This document shows positions 13,501 to 63,112 of a stretch of 64,000 nucleotides of DNA, one piece after another (position 1 is the stretch's first letter; each line of letters begins with the position of its first letter). A program made the translations under genes and the position numbers. The notes under the pieces were generated by a model, which was not told the origin of the DNA, searched no databases, and saw only the letters and a list, made by a program, of their open reading frames with translations. The DNA is taken from the NCBI GenBank assembly GCA_973895155.1, contig OZ316894.1:16786216-16850215 (forward strand). The letters are read 5' to 3'. The stretch comes from Marsupella aquatica. Its lineage: Eukaryota; Plantae; Marchantiophyta.

Positions 13501-16156
13501 AGCAGCCACAACAAGCGCTGCCTCATCTGGAGATTCAGCTCGGTAATCCATTGACTGAGGGTCATCAACTTTGCCCTCTGGGATAGCTGTATGGCAAAGA
13601 GCAAGAATCTGGAAAAACAATCTAATCATGTCCGCATTTTCTTCCTTTGTCCAGTTACCCCCTAGAAGTCGAGAGTCAGAAAAATTAAATCCTTTAACTT
13701 CGTAAGGATTAACTCCGGCATCATCCCCGTTCTCTCCTCCGGGACCACCGTCCGACTGTGCACCGTTTCCAAGAGAAAGCCCAAGACGCCGGGCAGCCCT
13801 TTCTACCTCTGTTGTACCCTTCCCATATGGAACTCCTGCTATAGAGCATCGGAAAAAGTCCATTTGGTTGCATGTCAGAGTTCCAGTCTTATCAGATAAG
13901 ATGGTGTCCACTTGCCCCAGCTCCTCGTTCAACCCTGTTGACTTGACCTTTGCCGGTGTGTCAGTACTGGCTTCGTACATTCCCAAATCCTGCATCATGT
14001 AAATTCCTTGGATAACCCGCACAATTTCAAGAGAAACATAAAGTGCGATGGGAATAAGGTAGCCATACAGGATCAGCCCACTCACAGCTGATACAATACC
14101 AGCAACTGCAGCTTTGTTGGGATTGTAATAAGGATCGCTGACATAGGGCACAAGATACCATAGGTCTGGTCCTTCGTGTCTGGTCTTATAACCAAGCACT
14201 GCTCCAGTTGCAACACTCATTACGAGAAGAAGTCCAAACATTGCGTAAATGACTCCGTCCAATGACCTGTCAATGCGGCTCCGTTTGGATGGAGGGGTTG
14301 TGGAATTCTGCATGACCTTCGTATCATGCCCCGTGTACATCACTGCTCCCCATATGCTTCCAGTGTTTTGGAGGCTCGAGTCCCGCAGAAGAAGTTGCGC
14401 AGGACCAAGAGAAAATGATTGCCCATCTTGCATATCTATTTGCCCAGTGAAAGTGTAGAGTGATGCATTGGGTACTTCACATGTCACATCTGCTCGGAAA
14501 CCTTTTAAAGAGGTTTCATTTAAATCCCATGTACACTCCAGAGCTTGTCGAACCTGCCTATCATTACGATACAACAGTTAGAAAGACCCCAACGCGTCTA
14601 TACTAGAAAAACCGTTTTTAAAATCATACAACTCCAACAAGAGTCGTGGAAGAGATAACACAGAACAAAACGCTGGGCAAACTAAGGAAACAGGCCAGTC
14701 ACATAGTAACACGAGGATCGCATCTCGATAATCAAGTACACTGCGAAATAATAATTCTCTACGAGTCGTGTTACAAAATGTTGAATCACCTTCAAGTTTG
14801 TCTCCCCGTCAAGATTCTTAGTCTCCACATAGCAGACACCGTCAGGTCCACTAGAAGCGAGCAGAAGCAAATCTGCAGGAAAGTACTCTCCATCTGACAC
14901 TCGCACTAAATCACCAACATGTAAATCTTTCCACTGTAATGTCTCCAGCCTTTCCCCGTCCAGGAGGACTTGCACAGGAGTGGAGTTGACTTGCGCATCT
15001 CCTCGACCGCGACGGAGGTCTTCCCAAAGTTCACGACCAAGACCGAGAGCAAGGACAAAGCCGAGCGGAAGCACTACACTCACCCACGAGTACGGGCTAA
15101 ATGGCAATATCGACAATATTGCCATGGCTGTAAAGTACCAGTAGGCGGCCCTTCGATACTGTACAAATAGAGACAACGGCAAGAAACTGTACCAAGTGTA
15201 CTTCGTGGTGGAAGTCCTGTTTTTCTTGTACCTGCACGAAACGAACAGGGGAGCACATCTTAGGGAGAACAAATCTGTGTTAAACAGCGACAGTGTCTCG
15301 TGAATCAGCTCCTCGGTCACAGGATTGACGCCAGAGTCGTGCCTACCCAAGAAGACTTGTTGGTTCACGATGCCTTGTGGACAAAGAGAATCTTCCTACC
15401 GACATCCCGCAGCTTTCTAGTGTGGGACTCAACTCACTCTAGAAGGGGGAGAAGGAAAAGGAAAATCTGTTGGCTAGTGAAAGTTGGGATTCCAACATCC
15501 CACAGACGTAAAGTAGCGCAGGCCAACAGAGAGAGCCAGCAAAGCAGTCATCTCCGAGTTCAGCTGGTTGTGATAAACTTCGTAAGAAACTGATCTAATC
15601 GGTGAGCAGTCGGACCCCCGGTTTCACGATTTGTAGACACCGACATAACACTGTGCAACCCTTCAGGATGTGGGCTAGACGGAAGGAATCGACGAGACTC
15701 AGAGGATGCTACTGCAACTGAAGTAAGATGCCATGTGAATCAGAAGGGACATTAGCTCTGCAAATGGCCAGCTTAGATGAGTTCTCCGTAAGCTGTCGAT
15801 AGACTGAAATTCGGCAAGAAAAATAGATCGCAGAAGTCGTGATTGGATCAGCGCTTTGCCCGTCACAGGAGTTGGACCATAATGTACTCTCGTCCAGGAC
15901 AAGATACGTAGGGTTCAGACTCCGAAGAGTAGACAGATGTGGGGGCGAAAAGTTGTTAAATTGTAGATATTGACTACGACTCATCCTAAAACAGGATTGT
16001 GGAAGGAGATAATCACCGGTATAATTCATTGAGCGTGCGGTCATTGATGTGGATGGTGCGGGTTTCGCTGGAGCCGCCATCAGAAACATTCCCAGATGTG
16101 CGTGCACGCCATCCACCACGCCATAGCTTTGTCGCTCGGCGCCTTAAGTTGTCCAT
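10515..16156 (-). CDS. ALA: P4-type ATPase (aminophospholipid flippase, ALA family), 7 coding exons
   Basis: Exons 16156-16017 ([17 protein letters not shown], not in the ORF track), 15231-14790 ([15 protein letters not shown]), 14553-12923 ([53 protein letters not shown]), 12745-12634, 12381-11755 ([18 protein letters not shown]), 11514-11416 ([15 protein letters not shown]), 11243-10515 (TM5-10). Splice phases are compatible. Confidence 0.96.
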
Positions 16157-22368: not shown

Positions 22369-25300
22369 ATGGCTTGTGTGTATATTCCGGTGCAAAATTC
22401 ATCGGAAGAAGTACGGGTGCAATTGGATCAGCTGCCGCGAGATGCTACTGATATTCTGGACATTCTCAAGGCTGAGCAAGCTCCCCTCAATTTGTGGCTC
22501 ACATTCGCGGTACGTATTTCTTTCTCTCAGCTGATGCCTTCTTCGGCGGCAACTCTTGCCCTAAATGCCAGTTTTATAGCGTGAAGCGAGTGATCAGGCT
22601 GCGAGTGTAAGAGAACGCTTTCTGCAATCTCGAATATCAATATGTCTGTGCGCAACGTCTCCTGGTCTCTGTCAAATTATTTGCTTATTGACAATGTGCA
22701 GAGAGAGTACTTCAAACAGGGGAAGATTAACGAATTTCTTCAAATCTTAGTAGAAGGATCTAGTCCAGGTATCGGATTCTGAAATCCTGTCTCTTTTCTT
22801 GTCTACTGTAGCTCATTTGCTGCACCATCGACGAATCATCAGAATGTATTGACTCATGGCTACGATTCATTTGAACACTTACATTTATACCACTGACATA
22901 TTTGGCTACAGAAATTGATGAATATTACAGTGATGTCAAGTATGATCGCATTGCCATCCTAAACGCGTTGGGGGCATATTACACAAATTTGGGGAAAGTG
23001 GAGCAAAAGCAGCGAGAGAAGGATGAGCATTTTATAAGTGCCACACAATACTATAACCGTGCGTCAAGAATTGATCAAGATGAGCCTACTACATGGGTTG
23101 GAAAAGGTATCCAAGAAACTCCCTTTCATTTCGTACAGAAACTGCTCCAGAACCGCTACAACTTAGCATGTTACATTGAGGGTATATCATTGGACTACTG
23201 TCTGGTCGCAAAATGCTGCTCTTGAGGCATCTCACAAAATGTAACAGCAGCTCAAATCGAAACTTTGAAACTCTTGGATGTACAGGTCAGTTGCTACTGG
23301 CTAAAGGAGATCTTGAGCAGTCATTTGAAGTTTTTAAGATTGTCTTGGAGGGACAACCTGACAACGTTCCAGCAATACTTGGACAGGTCTGAAGCGTAAT
23401 ACTCTTTTTCTTCATTCGTTTTGAAAGGAACCGCTGAAAGTTCGCTTTAGCAGCATTCAATGATCGTTAACAACGAATAATTTTTCCTTCATGTTCTTCT
23501 ACAGGCCTGTGTTCAATTCAATCGTGACCGCTACCAAGAGGCTCTGAGCCTTTACAAGGTAATTTGCTGCACCTGTGTATTTGCAATCACGGCAAAAAAA
23601 TGACATAGTCAGTTTTGGATGTTGTTCTACTCAAAGATCTAGAGATTTTCGTGCATACTTACACTTGAAAAGGAACTGACATGTTATTTGCCAGAAATAA
23701 TTCTTTTCAGTTTCAGTTAGCACGCAGGATTCTTATCTGTAGAGGTTATGCATCAACGTCTGAGACAGATTGGACTAGAGTGTGCCAGCTTTGATTTGAA
23801 AGCTGCTAAGGAGAGTGGTCCACTCGCTGTTGTGCGTATCTCTCAACTAGGCTATCACTGTGGTCGATGATAATTGTTTAATGACGCTTTGGTTGGTAAT
23901 GATGCACAGAAAGCATTGCAGGTTCATCCGAGGTGTCCAGCATCAGTGAGGCTCGGTTTAGGTCTATGTCGTTATCGCCTAGGGCAGGTTAAGAAGGCCA
24001 GGCAAGCATTTGAACGTGTCTTGCAGGCATGTATTGACATTTATGCTTTTCATTCAACACTATTTGCTGTCTTCAGTGCATCCGTACCGCTGTCTGTACC
24101 CTGTGAATGAACCTGAGATGCTTCAGATTTTTCTAGAGGCCTCATACTGGTTTAAAAAGTTGTAGAACTTTTGCTCTTCTGACGCGCATCCTCAAAATGG
24201 GTTGTATTAGTTAATTGGACTAGCTAGCAGTTTTGTTTGTGTGTTGACCAAGGGCCTGTCATCTCATGTTATTGTCTGGCTTTGCATCTTGCAGCTGGAC
24301 CCCGGGAATGTGGAAGCCCAGGTGGCTTTAGGGGTCATGAATATCAATACCAATGAGCGTATGCATTTGGCACCTTTATCTTTGTTTCGTAAGCTAGTCT
24401 ACAGAAGTAGCTTTGCTCCAAACAATATTTATCAAGCAACTGCTCTGCGTCAGCAAGAACATTTACAGGGGCTCTGTTGCGATGTTGTAGTGATCCACTG
24501 AAAGTCTTCTATTGCTATAAGGACCTCGCTAAAACTATTGTGTTTGGTTTCCTGACACATGTTTGTGTACTGGGCTGCAGCAGAGGGAGTTCGTGAAGGC
24601 CTGGAGAACATGAGGGCAGCTTATGAAATCTATCCTTACTGTGCAATGGCCCTAAATCACCTGGCCAACCATTTTTTTTTCACAGGACAGCACTACATTG
24701 TGGACCAACTGATGGAGGCTGCTCTTGTAGCAACAGACCATCCACAAATCAAAGCGCAATCTTATTACAATCTTGCACGATCATATCATACAAAGGTGGG
24801 TCCAAAGTTTTCCATGAGCTTGGTGCCGGTCAGACAGGCGTAGTTTCGAATGAAGAAAACACTGGAAAGCTATTATTTGACAAGTCCACCCTACATGGAA
24901 TGTATATCTCAAATGAATAGCCCTGAATCTGGATGCAGGGCGACTACAACAACGCAGCAGCTTACTATAGAGCATCAGTCAAAGATCTAAAGGATGCGCG
25001 CGAATTTGTTCTTCCCTACTACGGTGAGGAATGGACACTGCATGTTCTGTGATCTTTACAGATTGACTGTTAAGAGGGGGAAATATCTACCAATCAAATA
25101 GCAATATCAACTTTAAAGGTTCCTCGATCTCATTTACTGGAAGAAATAACAGCGGGAAAAAGGAAATAGACCGTGATGTTTCCCTTTTGGCACGCTAAAT
25201 TCCAACGTTACACCGAGGTTCTTAAAAATTGACCAGCATTTTTAAGATGTGCACTGCCGTGTCTCAGGTTTGGGGCAAGTTCATTTCAAACTGGGAGAAC

Positions 25301-28300
25301 TTAAGACAGCTTTAGCAAATTTTGAGAAAGTGTTGGAGGTACATCCTGATAATTGTGAAACAATCAAGGTAGGTCTCTGGGCTACGAGCATCTTTCTTGT
25401 TACCGAGCGGGAAGCTCATGGGTTTGAAAGGTTCAGAATTACATTTTGGCAGTATCTGCGGATTCTCGTTTGATAAAATGCCAATCTCGAAAAGACCGAT
25501 GTGTTCTTGTTTTGCTCCCAGGCAATGGGACAGATATATCTCCAGCAGGGCCATATGGACAAAGCTTTGGACAATTTCAAGAAGGCAACGAAGCTGAATC
25601 CTCGGGATGTTGATGTGAGTTCCTCGCCAATATGGAATCATTCACCCGGCTAGTAGCATTCAAAATAAGTAGCAGACTTTCTGGCATTCTTGTCAAAGTA
25701 TGTTATGAGCTGTTTGTTAGCATTATGCTGTTCTGATTTACTTCTTGATTATCTGATTGACACAGGCTTGGGTGGAACTGGGTGAACTACTCGTCTCTTC
25801 CGATTTTGGAGCAGCTCTGGATTCTTTCAAAACTGTGAGAAACTATTCTTGAAATGATTTGACAAGATTAGCGTGCAGTGACCTTTTGGTTGGGATAGAT
25901 TTTGGAGTCCTCACTGTGGATCCTGCAAAAGGCTTCAGACTGGAAAGAGCCATTTTTCTGGGAAAGTTGTGCCAGTGCAGAGGCAGTTGCTTACTGGTAA
26001 TTGGACTCTGCAGTTAGTCTGAAGTGCGAGCTGAGGTTTTCTGTGGTGGGAGTTACTGTCTTGAGTTTAGTAAAGAGAATTAGATTAAAAAATATTCCCT
26101 TTCCAAATAGACTCGGTCGACAATAATTTGATTTTATGACGAAGGGTCTAGCTGTATCGCCTGAGCCCCTCTCTTTTCGAATATAATAGTCGGATTCGTT
26201 TCCTCGTAAAGGACGCTCATATCTACTCAAAGTTACTGAATTTGGACTGTCGATGTTGGCAGGGACTTGGTCTTATTAGAAAAAATGAGGATCCCATACC
26301 TATTGGACTCCTAAACAATATCGGCGTTCTTCACTTCGAGCGCAATGAGCTTGAGGTATGCACCGCTCGCAGCTTAAGCAGATACCTCCAACGGGAGGCC
26401 GATGTTCTTTGTGAAGAGAAGAGAACTCTCATGTGTTGTTCTCTTGACTGGCCTGAGCTTGGTGCCCACGAAAAATATATACGAATACTTAGACGATGGG
26501 GGAGTAGCTTCTCTGTTAACATATGGTTGTTCATGTGCTGTATCTTCTGAAGGCCGCAATGGAAGCTTATCGTGAGGCGTTGGGGGAGGGTATTTGGGTT
26601 GAGTTTAGTGAAGGGAGAATACCTTCAACTGAGGGCGATGCTGGACTACCAGTAGATCTTAGTGATGAAAATAAAAAGCTTAAAGAATTGGAAGAGGACG
26701 GAGTGCTATTGGATGTACCTGCAGAGAAAGTGACGGTTCTTTTCAATCTGGCAAGACTTCATGAGCAACTCCATGAAACACACAAGGCGACTATACTCTA
26801 TCAACTGCTTTTGTATAAGGTGCGTGCCGCGAAGGGAAGTATGTCTTCTGTCCTCGGGTCTTCATCAGGATGCATGCAGCAAACCACGTAACCAAGGATT
26901 GCATATGCACTGCTGCTTTACGGATTATTGGGTCAGAAATTCTCTTTCCAAGTAAAGCGAAGTCTTGGAGGAACCCAGTTCTCCTTTGATATACTGGTCC
27001 AGATTGGAAGATGACTGGGGTTTTTCAATTCGGAATTTAAAACATTTCTTATTGCAGAAAGCTGTTGAAGTAAGAACTGCTGTTTTGGAGTTAACATTTT
27101 GTCTATCTCCTGGAAATCAGCATCCTCAGTATATAGATGCATTTATGCGACTGGCAGCTATGGCTCAGGCGAGGAATAGTACAGCCGCAAGCCTGAAGCT
27201 GGTGGGTGCCATTGTGTAAAGCAATTTGCTTTGAGTTACTCTTGATAGTTCAGGCTAATGGTTGGAGCCTGTGAAAAATAGAAAGCTTTGGTTCATGTTT
27301 CAACTTTTTCTATCGTGGGTGTAAACATTTCACCTTCTTCAGGTCTTCAATAAGGTCTTTTCCGTTCGACAGAACAAGAAGTAGGATTTCAGGTTATGGA
27401 ATAAGAACTAGAATTTATAATTCTAAAGTATTTTGCTCTTTTTGGCAGGTTTCTAAAGTGCTGAAAGTAATAGGAAATTGTGCGGATGCTTTATCAGTAA
27501 GAGGTAGCATGGAACTCAAAGCTGATGATTGGCTGAAAGCAAAGGAAACCTACAAAAGCATACAAGTTGCTGACGGGAAAGACAGTTACTCAACTTTGGC
27601 CCTGGTAAAATTCTTGGAAGCAATAAGGAAATATTGTTCTTACTGTCTTGCAAACAATCGCTGCACAATCTACGACATGATGGATGTTGCATGGTAGCAC
27701 TGCTTATGAATGTTTTTTGTCGAAAGTGATCGACTCATTCGAAGTCCTGTTTGATGGTGACGACTAAGTCAGTGGGAAACGAAAATAAAGTTTTGCGTAA
27801 GATGGGACGGCAGGAAGTTTTGTGTGCACAACAAACCGATTTGTTGATGTGGAAATTAAATCCCTAAGATTACATGATGTGAACGGATTTCAACTTTGAA
27901 GCGGCCACTGACCTGCCTTTTCCTCCAACAGGGCAATTGGAATTATTATGCTGCTGTACGGGGAGAGAGAAAGGATCCCAAACTGGAAGCTACTCATTTG
28001 GAAAAAGCTAAAGAACTCTATCAGAAGGTTCTTAAAGACTTAATTTCTTTGGCAATGTTTCCCTTCAATATGATTTTTCGATTTTTCATTTATAAGCACT
28101 TCTCTGAGGCTGCTTACTATTCTGATTAGAGTGTCCTAGATTAGCCAAGGTCCTCGTGTGGACTGAGTTTGTTTAGCTCTATTTAATATAAAATGTGATG
28201 TGCTTGAGATGACAGGTTTTAGTGCAGAAGCCAAACAATATGTTCGCCGCGAATGGGATAGGCATTGTTCTAGCTGAGAAAGGCATTTTTGATGTCTCGA

Positions 28301-30940
28301 AGGAGGTTTTCACCCAGGTAACTGAAAACTTATGGCCTAGCTTGGGTTCAAAGATCTCTTCAGAAATGGCTGGAGGGTATCTACGTTTGTTTCCATTTCA
28401 TAGTAATTTTCCAAATTGAATCCACCGGGATTTCAAAATTCCTCTCACGTTTATAGACTTATTGGTTGTTAGAAAACCTAGACACGGATGATTACCAAAA
28501 AGGAGAAACTGTTTGCACGCAGGTACAAGAAGCAGCTGCAGGTAACGTTACCGTGGAGATGCCTGACGTTTGGATCAACCTCGCACATGTTTATTTGGCA
28601 CAAGGGCAATTTTCTCTAGCAATAAAAATGGTAAGTTTCTCAACAGGCTTGCGTGCTGTTGAAGGTCGTCGGCGCTTGAATCCTGTAGAATTCTAGTAGG
28701 ATCGATGCCTGCCATGAGACACAAGTTTCATTGAACAGACGTTCATTGATTTTCGTCTGAGTTTTTGTCGAGTTCACCCCTTTCACATTCAATCGTTTCC
28801 ATTGCATCCTTGGTCGGGGTTGGTAATGCGTGGCTGGGATATCAAGGCTTCCTCCTATTTTCAATCCTATCCCCTAACAATAGCCACTGGTTTTGCAGTA
28901 TCAAAATTGTTTGAAGAGATTTTATCATAACACGGACAGTCAAGTCCTGCTCTATCTGGCCCGAACGCACTATGAGGCAGAACAGTGGCAAGATTGCAAG
29001 CGGGTGCTTCTTCGAGCCATTCACTTGGCACCATCCAATTATACTCTGCGATTTGATGTGGCCATTGCGATGCAAAAGTTCTCAACAGCTACTCTCCAGA
29101 AAGTGAAGCGGACAGCTGAAGAGGTGGGTTATGGGAGCCTCCAATTACTTCATATCTGTTAATGTGGAAGGTTGTGATATGTGTGCAAGGATTTATTATT
29201 TCCTTTGGTAAGCAACTGTGGGTTTGATGGGCTTGATGACTGTGCTGGTGTCAAAACGGTGGTGTCTCACGTGGCATATGCGGTACTAGATTTATTCACA
29301 AATGACCTCTTGGCTGGATCCAGGTGCGACAGTCAGTTGCAGAGCTGAAGAACGCACTTAGACTATTCAATCAGCTATCAAGTGTCGGTGTCAATCACGG
29401 GCATGGATTTGATGAAAAGAAGATCGAAATGCATGTAGAATATTGCAAACACCTGCTGGATGCTGCAAAAGTACATTTGGAAGCAGCAGAGCGTGAAGAG
29501 CAACAAAATCGCCAAAAATTGGAAGTTGCGCGTCAGCTTGTCATGGCAGAAGAATCACGTCGCAAGGCAGAGGAGGACCAGAAAGCTCAGGTCAGGATCT
29601 TGGGGCCACAGCTTTTTCACATGAAAGTATTTTTTCTTTGCGTTCAGGATTTTGCCTTCAATCACTGGTGGCAGTTGAATAGATTCAGTGAGGCACAATC
29701 ATGCTGGGCGTCTAGTGTTTTAAAAATAGTTGGATGACTTTTTGATGGTGCTTAGTCCTGGCTACATCTATATTGGATTCTTCTAGCACGAAGGTCGTAC
29801 ATTCATTTGTATAGCTGAACTTTCCCTGGACTTAGGTGGAGAGAAAATTGAAAGAGGAGGAAGCAAGGAAGGTGCTCAGAGAGGAAGAGAAGCTGAAGCA
29901 TCTGATGGTACGTTCTCGTGTGTACAAAAGTTCATTCTCAATAAATGGGAGAAGGGATTATGATGCCACATTCCTTCCGTTCATTTCCTTACTTTTTCTC
30001 TCGTCAGGTTTTGACTTTGGACCCTCAATTTTATTAGTGGGTGGCTATCCTTCCTACTTTGCAACAATCAAGTTCTGTCTCCAGGCACATTAGAATGTTG
30101 GATCATCTTAGTATTCCTCCATATCAGTTGACTTTTGGCTGTTTGAGCTTGAATGATCAATTTGGTTCGACCCTTGGCGATCTTAAATGTCGCGCATTCA
30201 CATCCCTTTCGTGGACTGTCTCCAGGCAAACTGGAATGTGAAGTCGTCTAGGCATGATGATGATGTAGAGGACGGAGCATCTGAGAAGAAAGAGAAGAAG
30301 AAAAGGAAGAAGAAAGAAAAGCGAGTCCGGTCGAAATCTAGATCTAGATCCCCATCTGAGCCAGAGTATGAAGTGGATGAGAGGTACAGAACTGCGTCAC
30401 CAGAAGAGGACACACAAGATGCTCTAGCTGCAGCTGGACTGCTCGACGAATCAGACGACGAGGAGGCGGTAAGACTTGAATCCGATCTACTTCTCTAGTC
30501 TTGTGATCAAAGGTCTCAATCGAGAGAAAGCAAGCAGGGCATGTATGTGTAGAAAATGGCTGACTGACAGATCACCTGCTGTCGAGTGGATTACAAGAAA
30601 TAACTTATGTATTAGCTTATGTAGAAGATTTGAGAGACTGAAATGTGCGTTCCACAGTTGAAGCGTCAGTCTGATATTTCCCACATGATGATAATGTGTC
30701 CAGGTGAAAGAAGCACCACGGGCAAAGAAAGGAAGGTTAAGACGGGCACTTTCCGAGTCAGATGACGAAGATGGCTTGCACGGGCAAAGATTTGAGGGGA
30801 ACAATGCTTTGGCTGATAGTGATGCTGATATGAAAGGAGCAAAAACTCTGGAGGACTCTGATGCAGATGAACAAGTAGTTGAAGCTGGTGCTAGAAGGCG
30901 TCCCAAGCAGTCACGACTGGCAGACAGTGACTCTGACTGA
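22369..30940 (+). CDS. CTR9: PAF1 complex TPR subunit CTR9 (VIP6/ELF8 homolog), many exons
   Basis: N-terminus MACVYIPVQNSSEEVRVQLDQLPRDATDILDILKAEQAPL (ATG 22369) closely resembles plant VIP6. Later TPR exons include EIDEYYSDVKYDRIAILNALGAYY, LNHLANHFFFTGQH, GNWNYYAAVR, EMPDVWINLAHVY, LYLARTHYEAEQWQDCK and HGFDEKKIEMHVEYCKHLL. The tail is acidic/Lys-rich with a stop at 30940. Confidence 0.96.
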
Positions 30941-49600: not shown

Positions 49601-50830
49601 TCCTCACTGGCTTCTTTTGGCAAAGGGTGTCCGTTGGTCTACAACAGGCTCAAGCATTCATAGTGCTCCAGTGAGCTGAGGTGGTTGATTTCAGGGCTTC
49701 CAGTCAATTCCCTATTAGTGACCCTCTTAAGTATGCACTTCACCCAAAGCTCTACCAGGCATTTCCTTATGTGCCTCAATAGGGCTTTTGGGCTTTTTGG
49801 TCCTTAGGCTTTTGACTCTTGGGTTTTCTCAGTCTTTTCCTTTGAACCCCTTTATAATTGTGTTTTTGGCTTTTGGGATCATGTCTCAAGGTATGTAGTT
49901 TGGTATGGCATTTTTGTTGTGTTGCAATTCCAAATAGAGTATGTGGGCCCATTTGTTCAAGACATGTTTAATTTGGTTTTCATATCATACTAGCCCAATG
50001 CCCATCCGCGAAGATGTCACAACAAGGCAAAGAATACAGGTGAGGCAAGGAAGTTGTTGAAACATCTTATGTGTTGTGGGGAGGTTCCAACCTCAAACGG
50101 GGAGGTTCCAAACGGTCACTATATGTGTAGGGCCATACGTCCCGTGCCACAGTTTTGGGCGGTTTTGGGTATTTATGACCCCTCTTTATCACTTTAAATA
50201 AAGTTGTACAATACCAACCATATGATGACACATAAACATTTTGTAATTGAAAAACCCTATATTTCCACTACAACTTAATAACTTTTTCTCAGAATGATTA
50301 CAATGACGATATACTTTGTCACATTAATTTACAAGGAAGTAATCCCCTTGAGATCAGAATTTTACCCATGGAGAATATTCCCAAATGTTTTCCAACGGTA
50401 ACTTGTACCCGACTATGGTGCTACTATGGTTAGAAACGAGCCATAGTCGAGGCAAAAAGTATAAATAGAAGTGCCGCGACTTGTCTTCAGTATTTTGTGG
50501 TGTTCCAAGTGTGGTAGGTTTGGTGTACATTTCTTTCTTTGCAGGTGGTGAATATTTCTTTTGGATAATTGTTCAGGTCTTAGTGAGAGCTACATTTCTC
50601 TCTGTTTTTTGGACGGAGTCAACCCGCACTAGATGATAGTTGCATTTTTGGGGGGTGGGTGGGGGTGACTTTTGCTTACGTTTCACTGTTCTCCTCCTTT
50701 TGCCTTTACTCTCATGACTGAAAATAGTGAGCCTTCGAGTGGTTGTTGGTCCTTTGCCTTGTTCTGGTCTGGCGGCTACTCCTGTTTTGGGCATTCGAGT
50801 GGTTGTTTTATTGGGTTTTGTGGTTGATTT

Positions 50831-51018
50831 ATTGGGTTTAACTTTTTACTTTTCTCGTAAGTAAAGTGCTTCTTTCAATAAACAAATATCTCATAAAGTT
50901 AACCAGGTGATATCCACAGATGATTGAGTTCCTCTTTTATTGGGTTCTATTTTTTACTTTCTCATAAGTAAAGTGCTTCTTTCAAGAAACAAAATATCTC
51001 ATAAAGCTAGCCAGGTGA
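50831..51018. repeat. ~108-bp tandem duplication upstream of the NLR-like gene
   Basis: attgggtt..tttttactt.ctc.taagtaaagtgcttctttcaa.aaacaaa.atctcataaag.ta.ccaggtga occurs at ~50831 and ~50939. Confidence 0.8.
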
Positions 51019-52118
51019 GCCTTAATCCTATGCATAGTTGACTGAGAGTGCAGCGAGTATGTTGAGGTTGCCTACAAACAAAGAAGATGTGGACCACCCT
51101 TTTCTTAGGCTTTTCTCCAGTTTTCCCTTAGCAATTTTTCATGACGCATCTATTTGCTTTCTCCCATTGCGACCGAAGACGTATGTCAGATTCGGATTGC
51201 ATGCAAGACCATGGTAGTGCCTATTATTCCATCGATTGACGGAACCTCTTTTAAAAAGAAATTCGGGTCTGCTGCCAACCCCCTGGGCCCAAGCTCAAAG
51301 TCAGATCCGGTTCATATGGGTCCGGTTCATATGGACAGGGAAATTACGTTCCTTTCTGGGATGGTCAAAAAAAGTACAGGCTCTAAGTCTGAGAAGGTGG
51401 GCTTCCACGACACTGAATTCTCAAGAATATATGGAAGCCGTCACTGAGTGGGCATCCATCCCTTTGTAAGTTCATCGAACCTGAAGTATATCTATGCCTA
51501 GACCTTGACTTTCAACGTTTGATAATGCTCCTCCAGCTAGTGCTCCTGCAGTGCCGCACTACCTTAGCTTTCAATCATCGACATTGGAGGTCTCACAACT
51601 ATTAAACGATCCTGCTCAGCATCATCGTCATCGTGCTTATGAGCTCCCTTTTCATTGTGTATGTCATGCAACAGTGTGATATTGAACTCTCTTGAAAACC
51701 TTTGGTGTGACTCCACTGCATGTTGATCTGAATTCTTTCGCTGAATGGCTGAGCATTTCCCGATGTCGAGTCGGGAGGAGTGGTGAGGAGAGCTTTTTGT
51801 CGGTAAGTGGTTAGTCGGTTCTCTCAATTCGAAAGAAGTCCTGGATCGTGAGGAGGCAGCCTAGTCCGGATTTTGAAGGCATAGAACTCCGAGGAAGAAC
51901 TGATTCGGGTAAAGCCATTCCATGAAGCAATTGTACTTAATATTTTCTGATGTCCATGGTAGTAGCGAGATCGATTTCCAAATGGTATGGCTATATGGAT
52001 ACTGTGGGCAACGTAGACATACGTACAGTAGCAAGCGACTTAGTTCATCTGCGAAGTTCACCTAGCTTTGCTAATATTTTGGTAATCTTTGCCATTGCGT
52101 GCCTGGTCGTACAGATTC

Positions 52119-55100
52119 ATGGAGGCGGTGAAGGAAGTCGTTACTGTCTGCGGTTCAATTCTCGACATTATGTCAAACATTGAGAATGTCAAAGAAGACT
52201 GGTTCACTGTGTCAGTGGAGTATCAAAGTGAAGCGACGATACTCCGCTCAAAGCTTGCGTACTATGAGGAGCAAGTCCGCATCCATCAGCAACCTGTGGA
52301 GAGCACTATGATGAAGACATTAAAGAAAGCCGAATTGGTACTGAAGAGAGCGGAAGCAAGATTGAACAGGTTGGAGAAAGGCGTAAACGTCAACCAATGC
52401 TGTTCCCAATTCTGGTGGTTATATGCAAAAGTGACCTTCACACTTTTCCCGGAAAAGTTAGAAAAGACATTTCAGACGGTGATCCAAGAGCTTGAGAGTG
52501 TCTCAAACAACATCGAGGAGGAAGTGAAATTCTCTGGTCTTATGCTAGAAGCAAGCAAGATTCGAGCCATGCCTACAGTTATCCACAATAATGATAACAA
52601 GTATGTTCCAATAGAAAAATCACAGTCTGCGGTTATCAAAGCAATTGAAGATACTCAGAGCGGGACTCGCATGATATTATTGTATGGTGGTGTAGGGAAA
52701 GGCAAGTCCACCCTAGCCAGATATATCTGTGAGCGCTATGGGCAATTTGGAGAAAAAAGCATCGTCTTTGATCATGTGATTTTTGTGTCGTGTGGTAATT
52801 GTTCCATATCTGATCTTGCCACCAAGCAGTACGAAATTTTGGAGCACCTTTCTCCCACTAGTTTAACTGAGGAAAGTAATTCAAAATCTGGGGAGAATGT
52901 TGGCTCAAAATCTCGAATCGCCAAAGCTCTACATAATGTTTTTTCTGGTAAAAAGATTTTGATGATCTTAGATGGCGTTTCGGATAAACAGTTTCTGTAT
53001 GGAATGTGGAAGGCTGCCAGAGACGGCAAAGATGATAAACTTCTCATCACTTCCCAAAGGTCTAATCTATGTGAAGACATTAAAGATGCCACTGTGCTTA
53101 TTACCATGGAAGATGCTTCCAAAGAGGAAGCGGGAAAGATCCTTGCCTCCCTTGTGGGGCTGGAGAGTAGCAAATTTCCTGAGAATATAAAGGTGAGTTT
53201 CCCTCAAACCAAATCTTAATGTATCACATATTGCAAAGTATATGTCTTGCTCTTTTCTAGTTGTCTCCTCAACGACTTTTTCTTTGGCTCAATGCAGGAA
53301 TATGCAGATAAGATGATAGAAGCAACCGGTGGAAATCCCTTAGCTTTGGCCTGTTTGGCAAGTACATTTTCTTACAAGGCAGATAAAAGGAACAAGAGGG
53401 CTTGGCGAGATGCTTGGATGGAATTATCTGAGTTACTAGACTCTAAAGCTACGAGTATTGTGTTAGACGATGAGAGTGCTACTCCTAGAAGCTTGTGGGG
53501 GGCCATGACACTTTGTCTAGAATCTCTGGAAACCAGGGATGCCAAACGGATACTCTTCTTGATGTATGCATGTAAAGCAGAATCTGTTCCCGAACATGTC
53601 CTTAGACTTTTTTGTGCTGGTATGAAGATGTCAAGCTCTTCATTCACACGATCGACAGATGAATTATGGATGAGAGAACTATTGAAGCGTAAAGCTGATC
53701 CATTGGCATCCAAGATGAATTTGGACCAGGAAGAAACTGAGGACGACTCTCCAGCGTGGTCCCTACAGTCTCTGGTGAAGCTTTATATGGAACGGCATGC
53801 TGTGGGTAAACAGGACGTCAGGGATATGATTGGGGCATTGCTTGGTGATGAAAGTTTTTCACCTGAGTCAATCAGTAGATGCAAGTTGCAGGATTATGAA
53901 TCGGAAATAGTGGGGAATGAAATAGAGATTGTGGAGAGTGACGCAATGAGAATGAGAATCACTCTTTGTGCTCTATACTTTGATGGCTGTCACACTGATC
54001 CAGTTGTGACTCGTGCCATGACTAAGGCTTCCAAAATAGCCAATCTTGTGGATTCTGATGACACCATGACGGATCTAAGGAGGAAAGCTATCGAGCCGTT
54101 GATATGGCTCTTGGACAAGCCTGAAGAGGAGGAGCAATGGACGGAAATGGACAAAGGCCGTGTGAGAAAGGTATTTCCCTTGTCACCTTTGAAGATTAAT
54201 TTGCTTCCCTCGCTGCACGTACCTTAGTTATCTTGAATTCAAATAGAAAATCATCCGAATAATTCTAATACTTCCTCACTCACAAAATCTAGCAGCTCAC
54301 ATGTTTGATATGGAACCGAATGCGTGACAGTGAGTCAGAGTTCGCCATTCTTCAACTATTCTTCGTAAGTAAGTGGAAAACAAACAAATTCAGCTTTCAA
54401 AACGAAATTAAGGCGTTTGATTTCGTTTTTAGCATATGGACGTGTCGTTCATACAAATAATGTTAGCCAGACGAACAAGCTATATGCGAACTGTAAGTAC
54501 GAGGCTTAATAGAAGCATGATTTTTAAGAGTCCTTGGAAAGCCATGTCTCTTCGATCGGTACGTTTTCTGCCTTGATCATGTTTGTTCTGATCCATAATT
54601 ATCACTAAATTTCAATTTGTGGGCATTGTGATTCCCTTTCTTTACAGGTCCTTCTCAACTTCATATGCAACCGGCGGCTAGATAACGACAACATCACTTA
54701 CCTGTTGAAGTTGGCTGCTTGTCCTTCCGCACAGTTGGCCACTCTCTCGGCTATTAGTCATATTTTTTCCATCGAAGAGACGCCTCTGCTCAATGAACAT
54801 ACAATCACCTTTTTGCAATCTGTACTTGACCTTTTGACTTTGACGAAGGCTTTGCAGAGTACTGTGCGACAGGCGGCCTCTAAAACATTGCGTGATGTTT
54901 GTTGGAAGGCTGCATATGACAAATCAGCAATCCTTGTTGGAAACTTTCCGGGTGTTTTTGACGTGCTAGTACACTCACTCGCCATACCCCATTCGAAGTC
55001 GGATGCATTTGCAGAAAATGCAGCTTCAGCTTTGACTGGCTTAGCATTCTCGAACGAATATGAGATCGTACGAGGAATTGTGAACAACGAGGGCCTACTG

Positions 55101-57666
55101 GCCAGTCTTGTGAATTGCTTGTGTCAGCAATCCAAGCCTACCTTACAAAAGGCTGCAGCACACGCTTTGTCAAATCTTACCGGTTCAACAAATAATGCTC
55201 TGAAGTTGAGAGTCGCCAATGCGGAGGGGGCTCTGCTTGGCCTGGTGAATTGCTTGTCACAGAATGGCCACCGTGAATTACAACAACGAGCAGCAGGGGC
55301 GTTGGTAAATATTACCAGTTCTACGGATAATGCTCTGAAGTTGAGAGTTGCCAATGTGGATGGGGCTCTGCTTGGCCTGGTGAATTGTTTGTCACAGAAT
55401 GACCATTGTGAATTACAAGAACTAGCAGCAGGGGTGTTGGCAAATCTTGCCGGTTCGACGGACGATGCTCTGAAGTTGAGAGTCGCCAATGAGTATGGGG
55501 CTCTGGTTGGCCTGGTGAATTGCTTGTCACAGAATGACCACCTTGCTGTACAACGGGTAGCAGCAGGGGCGTTGGCAAACCTTGCCGGTTCGACGGATAA
55601 TGCTCTAAAGTTGAGAGTCGCCAATGAGGAGGGGGCTCTGGTTGGCCTGGTGAATTGCTTATTACAAAATGACCACCGCAATTTACAAAAACAAGCAGCA
55701 GGGGCGTTGGCAAATCTTACTGGTTCTACAGATAATGCTCTGAACTTGAAAGTTGCCAATGTGGAGGGGGCTCTAGTTGGCCTGGTGAATTGTTTCTCAC
55801 AGAATGACCACAGTGATCTCCAACAAGAAGCAGCATGGGCATTGGCAAATCTTGCAAGTTCAATTGACAATGGTCTGAAGTCGAGAGTCGCCAATGCAGA
55901 GGGGGCTCTGGCTTGCCTAGTGAATTGCTTGTCACAGAATGACCACCTTGATTTACAACAACAAGCAGCATGGGCATTGGCAAATCTTGCCGGTTCGTCA
56001 GATAATGCTCTCCAGTTGATAGTTGCCAGTACAGAGGGGGCTTTGGTTGGCTTGGTGAATTGCTTATCACAAAATGCCCACCGCGGATTACAACAACGAG
56101 CTGCAACGGTGTTGGCAAATCTTGCCGGTTCGATGGATAATGCTGTGAAGTTGAGAGTTGCCAGTGCGGAAGGGGCTCTGGTTGGCTTGGTGAATTGCTT
56201 GTCCCAGCATGAGCACCGTGACTTACAACAGCAAGCAGCACAGGCATTGGTAAGTCTTGCCGGTTCGACGGATAATGCTCTAAAGTGGAGAGTTGCCAAT
56301 GAGGAGGGGGCTCTGGTTGGCTTGGTGAATTGTTTGTCACAGAATGACCATTGTGAATTACAACAACTAGCAGCAGGGGTGTTGACAAATCTTGCCGATT
56401 CGACAGACAATGCTCTTCAGTTGAGAGTCGCAAATGAGGACGGGGCTTTGGTTGGCCTGGTGAAGTGCTTGTCACAGAATGACCACCGTGATTTACAAAA
56501 CCAAGCAGCAGGGGCGTTGGCAAATCTTACCGGTTCGACGGATAGTACTTTGCAGTTGAGAGTTGCCAAGGAGGAGGGGGCTCTGGTTGGCCTGGTGAAT
56601 TGCCTATCACAGAATGACCATCATGATTTACAAAAACGAGCAGCAGGGGCGTTGGCAAATCTTGCCAGTTCGACGGATAGTGCTCTGCAGTTGAGAGTCG
56701 CCAAGGAGAAGGGGGCTCTGGTTGGCCTGGTGAATTGCTTGTCACAAAATGACCACCATGATTTACAAAGAGAGGCAGCAAGAATGACATCAAATCTAGC
56801 TCGAGCACCAGGGGCAATTGCGATCCTCAGAGAAACGGAAGGTCTATTGGAGGGGCTTACAAGCTTGGTGGGAGATGACATGAGTCCGGATACTCGATAT
56901 GCAGGAGTGGAAGGATTGCTTAAGGTCGACCCGACACTAGCGAAGCAACTAGGCTTGCTCTCCGTACAACTTGATTCCTCTTTGTTAAGGTACCTAAATT
57001 GATCACTGGTATCGATCCTACGCAACTCTTTTTGTGTAATGCTAAATGTGGATAGAAAGATGCGAAGAAGTTGTTCAACTAACAAAATGGACAGTATCAA
57101 AAGAAAATACTTCTGCAGGGCCTAATGAAGCTTAGGAAAATGGATGTGCAGACGCCAAGATTCAATTTGACGTCAAGCTTAGTCACATTGCATTGAATTC
57201 ACTAACATAGCTTTTCTTAAATGTGGCAGTAGCTAAAGTTGCAAAGAAAAGGTGAACAGGTCACTCGATGTGATTTATTTGCAGCATTACTCACGCTCAT
57301 TGTGATGGCAGTTCTAGAATTTTTGTAAAAGCTGAGCTTGGAGATTTTCAAGGGGCACTGGACGATGCGAACGCAGCATTCAACATGCCGGATGCTCCGA
57401 GGGCGTTTGTCTTGCAGGAGCGGGGCGTCTTGAAGCAAAAAATGGGAAATCTAGGGGGTGCCCTGGCAGATTTGGACGAAGGTTTAAATTTAAAGACAAA
57501 CGACTATGAAATGCTGAAGCACCGTGGCTATGTCAAATTCTTGTTAGATGACATGGAAGGAGCTCGCGCAGATGCAGAATGGGCTCTATCACTCGACTCC
57601 TTAAGGGATGATTCAAGTGGCTACTTGGGAGGAACCTGCGCAGAATACTTGGGCTATAGACTGTGA
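52119..57666 (+). CDS. NLR-like STAND protein: N-terminal 4-helix (MLKL/RPW8-like) - NB-ARC - ARM repeat array - TPR, ~1547 aa
   Basis: Exons 52119-53192, 53298-54170, 54648-56989 and 57312-57666 have GT-AG ends and matching phases (0, 0, 2) and total 4644 nt. Motifs: Walker A GGVGKGKST, Walker B ILMILDGVSD, RNBS-B LLITSQ, GLPL-like GGNPLAL, 45-aa ARM repeats, and TPRs RIFVKAELGDFQGALDDANAA, ERGVLKQKMGNLGGALADLD and HRGYVKFLLDDMEGARAD. Confidence 0.85.
55092..56802 (+). repeat. Coding tandem array of 135-bp (45-aa) armadillo repeats, ~12.7 units, within a single exon
   Basis: Consensus GALVGLVNCLSQNDHxxLQxxAAxALANLAGSTDNALKLRVANxE. Units start at 55092, 55227 and every 135 bp up to 56712, with no indels. 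Confidence 0.95.
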
Positions 57667-58857: not shown

Positions 58858-59040
58858 CAAACTTTTCAATCAAATTATTGCAACAAATATATTGAGCCAC
58901 TGAAATCGACACCAAATTGAACCTTTTTTATCAAAAAGCTGCAAGAAAATTTTTGAGCCACTGACATCGATACAAAATTTCAACTTTTGATCAAAAAGTT
59001 GCAAGAACTATTTTGATCCACCGAAATCGATGCCAAGTTT
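58858..59040. repeat. ~60-bp tandem repeat, 3 copies
   Basis: actttt..atcaaa....tgcaa.aa....ttga.ccac.ga.atcga...caa.tt occurs three times. Confidence 0.75.
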
Positions 59041-59486: not shown

Positions 59487-61426
59487 TCAAAGCGAAACCC
59501 CTACAGGTGGCTTCTCTTCTACCTGTGACTTGGTTACGGTTGCCTTCGGTGCTTCTGCGGATTGAGAAACCTTCGATTCCTCTATTGTGTCACTAGTTTG
59601 TGTCAAAGGCAGCCCCGCAACCTCCCGAAGAGGCTTCCACCTGTAAGATCGCCTGCGCGATTCAAAGAACAGAACATCAGGGGACAGATGAGAAGTAGTA
59701 AACATCGTCATGGGAGGCCAGACTGACAATACTTGCGGTCTTTGAAAGGAGTAGAGACGCAAGTTTTGAAAAGTAAGATGCCATACAGAACTATTGTCAA
59801 AAGGAGACCAGGAGATGCGCAAAGCTTACCACATTAAAACATAAAACCTACAATGACGATATTTGACGATTTATAATAGTAATAAATGAGGCACTCCGAA
59901 CCCAACTAAATGAGAATTTCAAAGAATGTGCAGAATCAAGAATGCCTCTGCTGCATCGATTGACTCAAAAAATTGGCTACCTATGTGTACATTTTGCGAC
60001 CTGACTCCAATGGCATAGACAGACCCCAATTCAACCATTTCAGTTACCGAGCCCCTACCAGGTGCCACACTCAGCAATAACTTTGACTTTCTTCCGCAAG
60101 GCTGGCAACAGAGCCAAATACTGTAATTCCGTCTTTGACAGTACCTGTTACATGCATGAAAACTTCTTAAAATTTAAAAACCTCGCCATGCCAGCGATAC
60201 TCACATCAGTGAACTCAAGTTCTGAATCACTTCACCAAATTCTTGCTTCTAAAAATGAGAACGAGGACATACAATGAGTACCTTTGCTTCAATGACCCAC
60301 AGAACAAGTCCCTTGGAATCTTCAGGCAGAGCAGAGAGCCTGTGATCCAACTCTGGCGGGTAATAAAAGCATTCTATTGCCTGTTTACCTAAATGGGCCT
60401 GCATATCCAGCTACCAGTGTCAGTACTGCGTTTCTTGTTTATAATTGAATGACTGAACAAATGTTTTCCAGGTCAAGCCCCTTGTCTTAATAGTGTAGAG
60501 GTACTTGACCTCCCAACCCCTCGCTTTATTGGAGCACTTCAACCTTTTGGTAAGCAGAAACTTAGTTTTCAAGGATATGGACACAAGGTGCACTCGCTCT
60601 AGACCCACGATCATTGGGGAAGGAGAAAAGGATACCAACCACAAACTGAAATTAGAGAGACAAGAACTAATGAATCTAATTAGTCATGGTTGGACGTGGA
60701 GCTTGACTCGGCTCACGGATTGATGCATGTAGAACAAACTTCAACCAAACCCGTGCATGTTACTTGCTCACATACAGTGATGGCAGATTCAGCTCGGAAT
60801 CCCCTCTCAGAATAAATACAGAGCGATGACTGCTACAACCCATAATTGCAAGAATTGCAAAATGACTTCAGGCACACCTCCACCATATGGAAAAGACTGT
60901 GTCACGTCGTGTAGAAAGAGCCAGAGCAGCTAGAGCAGCTAGAGCAGATAGAGAGAGAACGTACCGGTCGCACGCCATGGATTTTGGTGAGATAAGCCTC
61001 TGGGTCACCCAAGCCACGAGCCGTTATATTCATAAAGTGATAACCCTCCGACTTCAGGCGATTAGCATACCGCCCCTCGTAACCTCCCTCGGCGGGAGCA
61101 TAGACTGCAATCGACCCGTAGTCTTCCACATCCTTATACCACTGGTCCAGGTCGAATCCCAACAAGTCTCCTCCCCAGAAATCTGCGAGGCCAGCAGAAA
61201 CCACAGTAGTGCTCCCCTGCCTCTCAGCTCTGAGATTAGACGACGACGGGCAGCTACTCACACTACTTACGCTTCTTCCCCGCCAGAGCACAGGGGAGGA
61301 GAGCAGCCGGGTCGGAGGCAGAGACGGTGCTGCTGCATTGGTGCTTTGACATCTAGGAGAGGAATTGAAGGTGGCTGTGGACGGAGTGTAGCAACATCGA
61401 GCAGGGTAGACACTAATCACATTCAT
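59487..61426 (-). CDS. ndhN: Plastid NDH complex subunit N (nuclear-encoded, with transit peptide), 4 exons
   Basis: Exons 61426-60965 (Ser-rich transit; AVYAPAEGGYEGRYANRL..TARGLGDPEAYLTKIHGVRP), 60398-60282 (AHLGKQ..PPELDHRL..KGLVLWVIEAK), 60144-60059 (VLSKTELQYLALLP..IAECG) and 59652-59487 (RSYRWKPL). These are diagnostic NdhN motifs. Confidence 0.95.
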
Positions 61427-63112
61427 CGTTGGTACGTGGTCAGGCTAAATGTGCGCAAAGACTTCAATGGACTTACCACAGAGAGCAGAGAGCTGGTAGA
61501 GACCGATCATATCCACACTCTGAGGATGGCAATTGCAGTGACAGTGTACAACTGAGGAAACTTCGAAAGGCTTGAAGCACGAATGACCTCGAGGTCTTGT
61601 GTGTACGAGAAGAACATGGCCAAAATTCTGATGTGGGGGTGTGAGAGCGGAAGCTGGGCTACGATATCTTTTCGACTCTTGGTCGAAATGGGAGTCGAAA
61701 TGGGAGTCGAATTTGTGTCCACTATTTGAACCTCAGTGTTGTTACCGAGCGCTTGGCCATGGATCAGCAGGGCCATTATCAGCCAATGATCACAAAGCAA
61801 ACATGAACTACAGCGGGACTACAGCACAATCATGGGGCCCGTTTATCTGCTGTAAAGTTGTCCATTTGTCCAAACCGAAAAGTAATCGATAGGGCCTCTC
61901 AAAGCTTAAAATTTGATGGACCTTAAGGGCTAGGTTCCATGAAGTAGGGATTTGTACGGATGGGGAGTAAGGGTGCACGCAGGGCCCACCACCACAAATT
62001 TGGGGGCAGGGGTATTCTCGGGCCCATGCACTCCCTGCGGAGCAATCCGCGCCCCACTCTCCGGTACCAATTCTCACAAATGAAACCGGCTGTTCACAAA
62101 CGATGTTGCTGTGAAGCTCCAAAAACCTGCCCACAAACAAAGCTCACAAGAAGTCTCCAAGCTTTGACTAGATCGATATCTGGGAAGGCTGTGAACTATG
62201 GATCGGATCATAGCTCGGAGCATTGGGGCATTGCGAGCGGAGAATTAGGAATCTTGATGCTTGACATTTGCAATGGGAATACACCACAGGCAGGCAGCAG
62301 ACGAGTGGGCCGGCATTAGAATTTGAGTGTTTGACAGATTCAAAGAGCTATGGAATGGGAGTTGAGCTAAAAGACTTGTGTGACTCGCGCTGTTCTCCTC
62401 ATTGTACGCACCTCATTATCTGTGACTCCGTTCGAATGAAATTGTCCATTCTGCCCTTGTGAGTCCTGACTTGTGGAAGCTTTGACCTGAGTGAGTGACT
62501 GAGTGACTGAGTTGTGAAGCTTCGAGTGTGTGAGAGAGCGCCAGGACAAGGCTCTGGGATTTCAGGAACGGGTCATGTGAATCGTCCACTTCAGGTAGTA
62601 ATCTGCTAGAGATGTCCAAAGGCGGCCCACTTTGTCCGTGACCTCCGAATTCCACCTCAAATGATCGCACTACCATTAGGTAAGCACAAGGAGGAGCGAC
62701 AATACTTCCTTTTGAAGCACAGACTACTATAGGATTCAATCCGTGTATCTTACTGCACGAAGATACTTCACAGATCCATGTCACATCTCTTCATCACACG
62801 AGGGCTCGCTTGGGTCCAGATTGACAGGAAACAAGATTTTTGGCAGCAACGCTTGCAATTTTGAACTGCTCAAATCGAAGTATTCAGAGCAGGAGATTGG
62901 AAATCTATTTCTTCTGCACCCAAAGCAGAGGCAACATGGGACTCCAGCCACTGAAAAATCAAGTCGTTTGCCACACTCGTGATCGAGTGCATGGCATATG
63001 CCATCAGTAGTTCCTGCGACACATAATCTATAAGGCAAAGATGCCCAGTCGCCGCACAGTAGGGCAACGCATTTGCCTTCAACAACACGGATTCTAAGTC
63101 GCACTCGAATGA

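Follow-up and report, generated by a model that had tools for sequence, protein, structure and literature searches.

A 64,000-nucleotide stretch of the liverwort Marsupella aquatica (contig OZ316894.1, positions 16,786,216 to 16,850,215; here called the window) contains, judging from its sequence, a real and intact-looking four-exon gene of the NHAT / CC-NB-ARM class (CC, coiled-coil; NB, nucleotide-binding; ARM, armadillo), with predicted splicing. Its predicted product has 1547 amino acids (aa). We lean towards reading this protein as an intracellular immune receptor, which would sense an extended peptide via its homogenised ARM array and signal cell death. The bare architecture, NB-ARC and ARM followed by a tetratricopeptide repeat (TPR) tail, is already catalogued. 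What varies is the repeat pattern, the degeneration of the nucleotide switch and the swapping of the N-terminal domain. The coordinates are collected in Table 1.

Gene model and relatives

The first-pass annotation had joined four open reading frames (ORFs) of the forward strand into one protein of about 1547 aa with phases 0, 0 and 2. The joined ORFs have GT-AG ends, with donors at 53193, 54171 and 56990 and acceptors at 53297, 54647 and 57311, and the frame stays open over 1547 codons without stop or frameshift. Since 36 open splice combinations of these ORFs were listed, in-frame joining alone says little, and the four-exon model was chosen because of its homology to annotated proteins of Calypogeia fissa. 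The joining holds as a prediction, as the junctions are colinear with these proteins: junctions 1 and 2 align without gaps in six out of six (1456-1551 aa) and junction 3 in three of the six, namely those with a tail. The exon 4 acceptor at 57311 has the top score of three candidates against all three tailed proteins. The acceptors at 57284 and 57317 scored lower and were rejected.

In 16 of 21 genomic fragments of relatives the sequence runs into Val, the GT donor read through, at the codon where exon 1 ends, so that intron 1 is a conserved phase-0 intron. P0073 (homologues are numbered from P0001), from the 90% cluster of MARPO_0095s0062, ends at this codon too. At introns 2 and 3 the summed depth of paralogous pieces, taken from four contig runs, drops. 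Exon 1 is 61% identical to P0001, and 183 out of 287 positions of exon 2 are identical to it. Colinear single-gene models of relatives are found in three genera.

Pfam matches on the four exons bear out the NB-ARC core, the armadillo solenoid, the TPR tail and the lack of leucine-rich repeats (LRRs) described earlier. NB-ARC matches aa 170-352 in exon 1 (E 2.6e-12), Arm matches 10 stretches of exon 3, and TPR_9 and TPR_1 match exon 4 with E-values of 6e-7 and 1.5e-4, both below the curated cut-off. No LRR family was found at E<=0.1 in any of the four exons; ARM and TPR account for the C-terminal half.

A phmmer search with exon 1 against 1.84 billion representatives gave 61 matches. We looked up 30 of them by name, three further ones were named as Calypogeia via other searches and 28 are unnamed. 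The 30 comprise 21 liverwort proteins, one Senna CC-type nucleotide-binding LRR receptor (NLR; CC-type, CNL), two green algal proteins and six without organism. The 21 liverwort proteins belong to Calypogeia, Marchantia and Riccia. The long liverwort matches combine NB-ARC with ARM/HEAT and often with TPR; paralogs are many, and most long members carry 4 to 20 ARM units. A recent horizontal origin was dropped, as the named matches include no fungal or bacterial protein; prokaryote genomes were not searched separately. P0053 (Myrmecia bisecta, 824 aa), an NB-ARC protein of a green alga, carries a protein kinase domain at its C-terminus. The family member P0036 (Marchantia paleacea Mapa_002451) has PUL and cystine-knot Pfam matches inside the solenoid, possibly integrated domains.

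The NB-ARC tree has 42 rows, after leaving out 8 near-duplicates and rows with fewer than 230 profile positions (outgroups exempt). The window gene belongs to a Calypogeia subclade of seven (support 100/100), which has a long branch (0.88). Together with all liverwort relatives, MARPO_0095s0062 among them, it forms a group of 36 rows, apart from the CNL, TIR-type NLR (TNL) and algal rows. Deep placement is weak because the outgroups are few and three of them are long branches. Sequences of RLS1, the Selaginella NB-ARM proteins and the TIR-NB-ARC-TPR (TNP) proteins are absent from the named matches of the word-index and representative searches, so the tree cannot test the link to RLS1.

A profile of the TPR tail, built from six relatives, is present in 20 out of 31 long relatives (one partial) and in all three genera. 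The tail is therefore old, and is lost or unannotated in several lines. Positions 57621-57666 and the C-termini of Calypogeia, Marchantia and Riccia relatives share a conserved LG..P/C.EYLGY.L-like motif after the TPRs, which may tuck back into the groove of the TPRs. The earlier proposal of two tandem solenoids as sensor stands as far as both solenoids are present. That both are sensing is improbable, because the TPR tail is the conserved part (49% identity to Marchantia) and the ARM array the variable one.

The armadillo array and its variable face

Tandem Repeats Finder reports 11.9 copies of the 135 bp period at 55167-56768, with 83% matches. No listed contig of the four runs spans the array, so its copy number is without independent check. 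The best sequence matches of the ARM region in the PDB are designed armadillo repeat proteins (ArmRPs), Vac8 and importin-alpha. The groove face of ARM proteins binds extended peptides through a ladder of Asn residues, and this Asn is kept in 12 of the 13 window units. Among the 11 complete units the scaffold is near-fixed, and the most variable positions are Asn-12, -11, -8, -7 and -4 of helix 3 and the last position of the unit.

The same pattern was examined by sequence entropy in 25 proteins, ten of which (the window protein and nine relatives) have at least six mutually similar units. Averaged over these ten, the five most variable positions are Asn-7, -8, +3, -11 and -4. A seven-site groove set, which together with its numbering we take to be that of designed-ArmRP work, was more variable than random non-core sites (permutation p about 1e-4, and 8e-5 without the window protein). 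On a helical wheel the variable sites occupy the sector from -100 to +40 degrees relative to the Asn, on the other side from the fixed Ala/Leu residues. The designed ArmRP 'Lock1' (PDB: 6s9l) departs from its consensus at -8, -7 and -4. Based on pN/pS, omega is 1.26 at groove sites versus 0.38 at other repeat sites.

ARM units resemble each other more within most paralogs than between them, as concerted evolution predicts for such sequences: identity is 0.69 within the window array versus 0.24-0.51 between paralogs, the exceptions being the pairs P0001/P0002 and P0003/P0005. P0003 has two alternating unit types. Repeat identity is flat with distance (0.81-0.87), which speaks against a simple polar expansion. 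The homogenised ARM array, its variable helix-3 face, the switch degeneration and the N-terminal swaps are additions over the published class. Supplementary Note 4 of Dong et al. may already hold features given here as new, and no literature search was dedicated to the repeat pattern.

Switch, N-terminus and possible function

The window gene has an intact P-loop, sensor-1 and GLPL motif. The second Walker B Asp is present in 43 out of 56 relatives, and none of the 56 has the Gly of the window gene at this site; P0001 and P0002, the closest relatives, retain Asp-Asp. No contig of the four runs, exact or paralogous, has another letter at 52975, so the Gly is a shared trait of close paralogs and not an error. 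At the MHD site 18 of 30 relatives have the His and three have His-Asp, while all six members of the window's subclade have neither. Losing the MHD Asp makes angiosperm NLRs autoactive, as in NRC4 D478V. Judged by these motifs, either the off-state must be maintained in another way in this family, or the window's subclade turned sensor-only.

The N-terminal domain (aa 1-152) was modelled with AlphaFold2 from 44 sequences as three long helices, 2-55, 63-90 and 97-149, with a pLDDT of 77.6. Its first 30 residues are of low confidence, and a model from five sequences breaks the first helix at residue 20. The first helix is amphipathic (hydrophobic moment 0.44). Of the four-helix bundle ('4HB') claimed earlier, the helical domain stands and the closed bundle does not, since the model has three long helices with a low-confidence first one. 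The model recalls the opened CC of a resistosome, with an NRC3 match that is not significant. For the whole exon 1 model the ten best Foldseek matches are CC-NLR resistosome chains of ZAR1, NRC4, NRC3 and Sr35 (E 2e-8 to 2e-7).

Four relatives carry an alpha/beta-hydrolase at the N-terminus, namely P0002, P0006 and P0054 of Calypogeia fissa and P0060 of Riccia fluitans. These calls are weak Pfam matches to DUF676, PGAP1 or Abhydrolase_6 in automated gene models, for which we saw no cDNA support. The four hydrolase N-termini are 31-44% identical to one another, and a single clade of hydrolase-bearing relatives is rejected (approximately unbiased test, p-AU 3e-66) on a quick tree of 32 rows with the group labelled beforehand. 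In the annotated relatives the hydrolase thus appears to have taken the place of the N-terminal bundle on several independent occasions. P0002 retains the last part of the final bundle helix of P0001 (77% over aa 120-200), which points to a recent replacement. P0002 and P0006 have the order Hyd-NB-ARC-ARM-TPR, and neither this architecture nor any hydrolase domain is found in the rows considered here from Table S3 of Castel et al. 2025 (PMC12512272), which cover 90 out of its 96 'CC-NB-ARM' places. A further protein, P0059 (Riccia sorocarpa, 1378 aa), has a hydrolase, a divergent NB-ARC-like region and a second, ARM-family NB-ARC, and represents either a tandem fusion or the merging of gene models.

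In the mechanism we propose, the ARM groove with its Asn ladder would bind an extended peptide, derived either from a pathogen protein or from a host protein that the receptor guards, with specificity set by the variable side-pocket residues. Peptide binding would free the NB-ARC switch to oligomerise into a resistosome, and the N-terminal bundle would release its amphipathic first helix into the membrane, causing cell death as in CC and RPW8 NLRs. The TPR tail would be a capping or regulatory module and not a variable sensor, and homogenisation and copy-number change of the ARM repeats would renew the sensor surface. The executioner-switch-sensor order assigned to the protein earlier is, as a prediction, in keeping with this evidence.

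Several results weigh against the proposed receptor. With the second Walker B Asp and the MHD motif lost, a normal ADP/ATP switch is doubtful. The support of the 36-row family branch (89/96) lies below the starred level. The N-terminal model has no Foldseek match at E<=0.001, the best natural one being NRC3 (E 0.75, TM 0.53), and VIA matches it to helical bundles of a generic kind (wheat G10 CC: Z 8.3, rmsd 2.8, 99 aligned). The ESM Atlas leads RPW8, MLKL_N, Rx_N and MCAfunc score 0.82-0.86, below the 0.9 level; DUF7792 is also among the family-named neighbours below 0.9, as a lead only. Some relatives, such as P0054 and P0055 (0% each), have no Asn ladder. The groove set, that of designed-ArmRP work, was fixed after the window's own per-codon table had been made, and the paralogs are not independent. 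The excess of omega over 1 at the groove sites is not significant (95% interval 0.65-2.3), so that positive selection is unsupported and relaxed constraint would fit too.

Part of these results would also suit a sensor-only NLR, with the ARM array as ligand binder, a degenerate switch that has lost oligomerisation, and cell death carried out by a separate helper, e.g. a His-containing paralog. Sensor/helper pairs are generally known from angiosperms, and the Walker B change from Asp to Gly common to close paralogous contigs, the loss of the MHD His and Asp in all six subclade members and the long branch of the subclade (0.88) would be expected. We nevertheless hold it to be rather unlikely, as the P-loop, sensor-1 and GLPL are intact, the N-terminal helix is still amphipathic, the closest relatives keep the Walker B Asp-Asp and no second NB-ARC gene lies within the 64-kb window. 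Clearly less probable is that the protein is no pathogen receptor but serves as the STAND switch of some internal process, such as chloroplast turnover, senescence or the recognition of self and non-self between plants. The many paralogs with 4 to 20 ARM units, the varied groove and the N-terminal swaps fit receptor diversification better, although fungal allorecognition NLRs are generally known to have near-identical repeats with variable sites as well. RLS1 was originally described in chloroplast degradation during senescence, but its gain-of-function form triggers hypersensitive response (HR)-like death, both according to PMC10030324.

A decaying paralog, or separate transcripts for the NB-ARC and the ARM/TPR parts, is very improbable. 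Numerous splice combinations give an open frame by chance, two motifs of the switch have degenerated and the homologous gene models are automated annotations, but the 1547 uninterrupted codons, the colinear single-gene models in three genera, the omega of 0.38 at non-groove repeat sites and the Walker B Gly common to paralogs all argue for one maintained gene.

Beyond the peptide-sensing receptor proposed for the window gene, we put forward as possible though doubtful that the NHAT receptors of liverworts are natural modular peptide readers. Each ARM unit would read a part of the peptide via a few variable groove residues, unequal crossing-over would reshuffle the arrays, and the sensor would be mounted on a pore-forming bundle or a hydrolase. 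If true, this would be a plant equivalent of the fungal NLRs that shuffle their repeats, with a recognition code open to deciphering, and the ARM scaffold could be re-engineered for immune sensing in plants. A homogenised array with few variable groove positions makes recognition by non-LRR plant NLRs addressable unit by unit. Repeated helical/hydrolase swaps on one NB-ARC lineage would mean fungal-style domain shuffling in land plants.

Besides the two flanking genes in Table 1, the window contains exons at 22875-29737 (+), which we take to resemble a CTR9/VIP6-type TPR protein; the two ORFs scanned there gave no Pfam match. The gene is also flanked by repeats (50799-51020, 51306-51334 and 58859-59031): a near-duplicate of about 100 bp found by eye upstream, doublets of 21 bp and 15 bp, and a 60-bp tandem of about three copies downstream.

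Table 1. Features of the window, with positions counted from its first letter
Feature	Positions	Strand	Details
Phospholipid-translocating P4-ATPase gene	10515-15395	-	Multi-exon; flanking gene
Exon 1	52119-53192	+	aa 1-358; N-terminal helical domain and nucleotide-binding domain; ORF and GT donor
CC-like helical bundle	52119-52568	+	Amphipathic first helix; predicted executioner domain; AlphaFold2 model
P-loop (Walker A)	52686-52712	+	GGVGKGKST, intact; sequence, motif table
Walker B	52959-52985	+	LDG, second Asp to Gly; comparison with 56 relatives
Exon 2	53298-54170	+	aa 359-649; ARC1, winged-helix region, helical linker; weak Pfam NB-ARC tail
GLPL motif	53331-53348	+	GNPLAL; in exon 2
MHD-equivalent site	53757-53774	+	WSLQSL, without His and Asp; alignment of 30 relatives
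Exon 3	54648-56989	+	aa 650-1430; armadillo solenoid; Pfam Arm E 1e-52
ARM array	55089-56843	+	13 in-register 45-aa units, about 12 near-identical (135-bp period)
Exon 4	57312-57666	+	aa 1430-1547; TPR tail ending in conserved YLGYxL-like motif
NdhN exon	60902-61444	-	Plastid NDH subunit; flanking gene

Comparison with known classes

The first-pass annotation had suggested an undescribed class of non-LRR plant receptors. This does not hold, since the architecture is found in the named but little-studied NHAT / CC-NB-ARM class: a full-length homologue is the NHAT example, and six (NBARC)(ARM)(TPR) genes are catalogued with RLS1. The homologue, P0072, is MpNBS-LRR15 (MARPO_0095s0062, Mapoly0095s0062) of Marchantia polymorpha. 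BLASTP aligns aa 35-1547 of the window protein with its aa 41-1383 in one alignment (27% over 1591 columns, E 7e-81), and the tails are 49% identical over 120 aa (E 3e-33). In Dong et al. 2025 (PMC12513842) the NBS proteins are split into 10 subclasses, three of them called newly identified, and Mapoly0095s0062 is the NHAT example in the legend of Extended Data Fig. 6 and among five genes overexpressed in N. benthamiana and assayed for cell-death symptoms. We read the acronym as NBS-HEAT-ARM-TPR, which is our own reading and not the authors' stated definition. NB-ARC, HEAT/ARM and TPR without LRR are found in the window gene and in P0051, the cluster representative of MARPO_0095s0062. Both the window gene and MpNBS-LRR15 have a helical N-terminus, NB-ARC, ARM/HEAT solenoid and TPR tail with the C-terminal motif, and are homologous end to end; the window gene also has the intron 1 position found in the cluster of MpNBS-LRR15. 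The window ARM units are more homogenised (mean aa identity 69% versus 49%) and keep the Asn more often (92% versus 50% of units); neither the MHD His nor the second Walker B Asp is present in the window gene.

The CC-NB-ARM cluster of Castel et al. 2025 comprises rice RLS1 and fern, lycophyte and Marchantia genes, and the covered part of its Table S3 holds six (NBARC)(ARM)(TPR) genes, three of M. polymorpha and three of M. paleacea. One M. paleacea row has the rare PUL and Cys_knot signature also seen in P0036, from which we infer that the identifiers match. A CC-like N-terminus, NB-ARC and ARM instead of LRR are common to this cluster and the window gene, so RLS1 was an apt precedent. RLS1 differs (PMC10030324) by its 1040 aa, three ARM motifs, recognisable MHDV motif and lack of TPR. 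The link to RLS1 is deep and follows the tree of Castel et al., because no RLS1-like protein is among our named matches. ARM-type NB-ARC proteins of rice and Selaginella are noted in PMC8559963, PMC7145615 and PMC10586772; passages of PMC11906373 and PMC9825502 add nothing on the class. Our literature searches found no mechanistic study of the ARM-TPR form.

The window gene is not a canonical CNL, as it has no C-terminal LRR, no intact Walker B Asp-Asp and no MHD motif. Like the Hyd-NLRs (HNL), P0002, P0006, P0054 and P0060 have an alpha/beta-hydrolase N-terminus, but Hyd-NLRs belong mostly to the TIR-type NB-ARC clade (bioRxiv 2022.10.19.512840), whereas the hydrolase fusions here lie inside the ARM family on separate branches. 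TNP proteins share a TPR C-terminus. The window gene itself has neither hydrolase nor TIR. Fungal NLRs of the HET-E/HNWD type also have a STAND core followed by near-identical repeats with few variable binding positions, and exchangeable N-terminal effector domains. The resemblance would be one of analogy: their repeats are WD40, TPR or ANK, mostly on NACHT, while the window gene has ARM on a plant-type NB-ARC.

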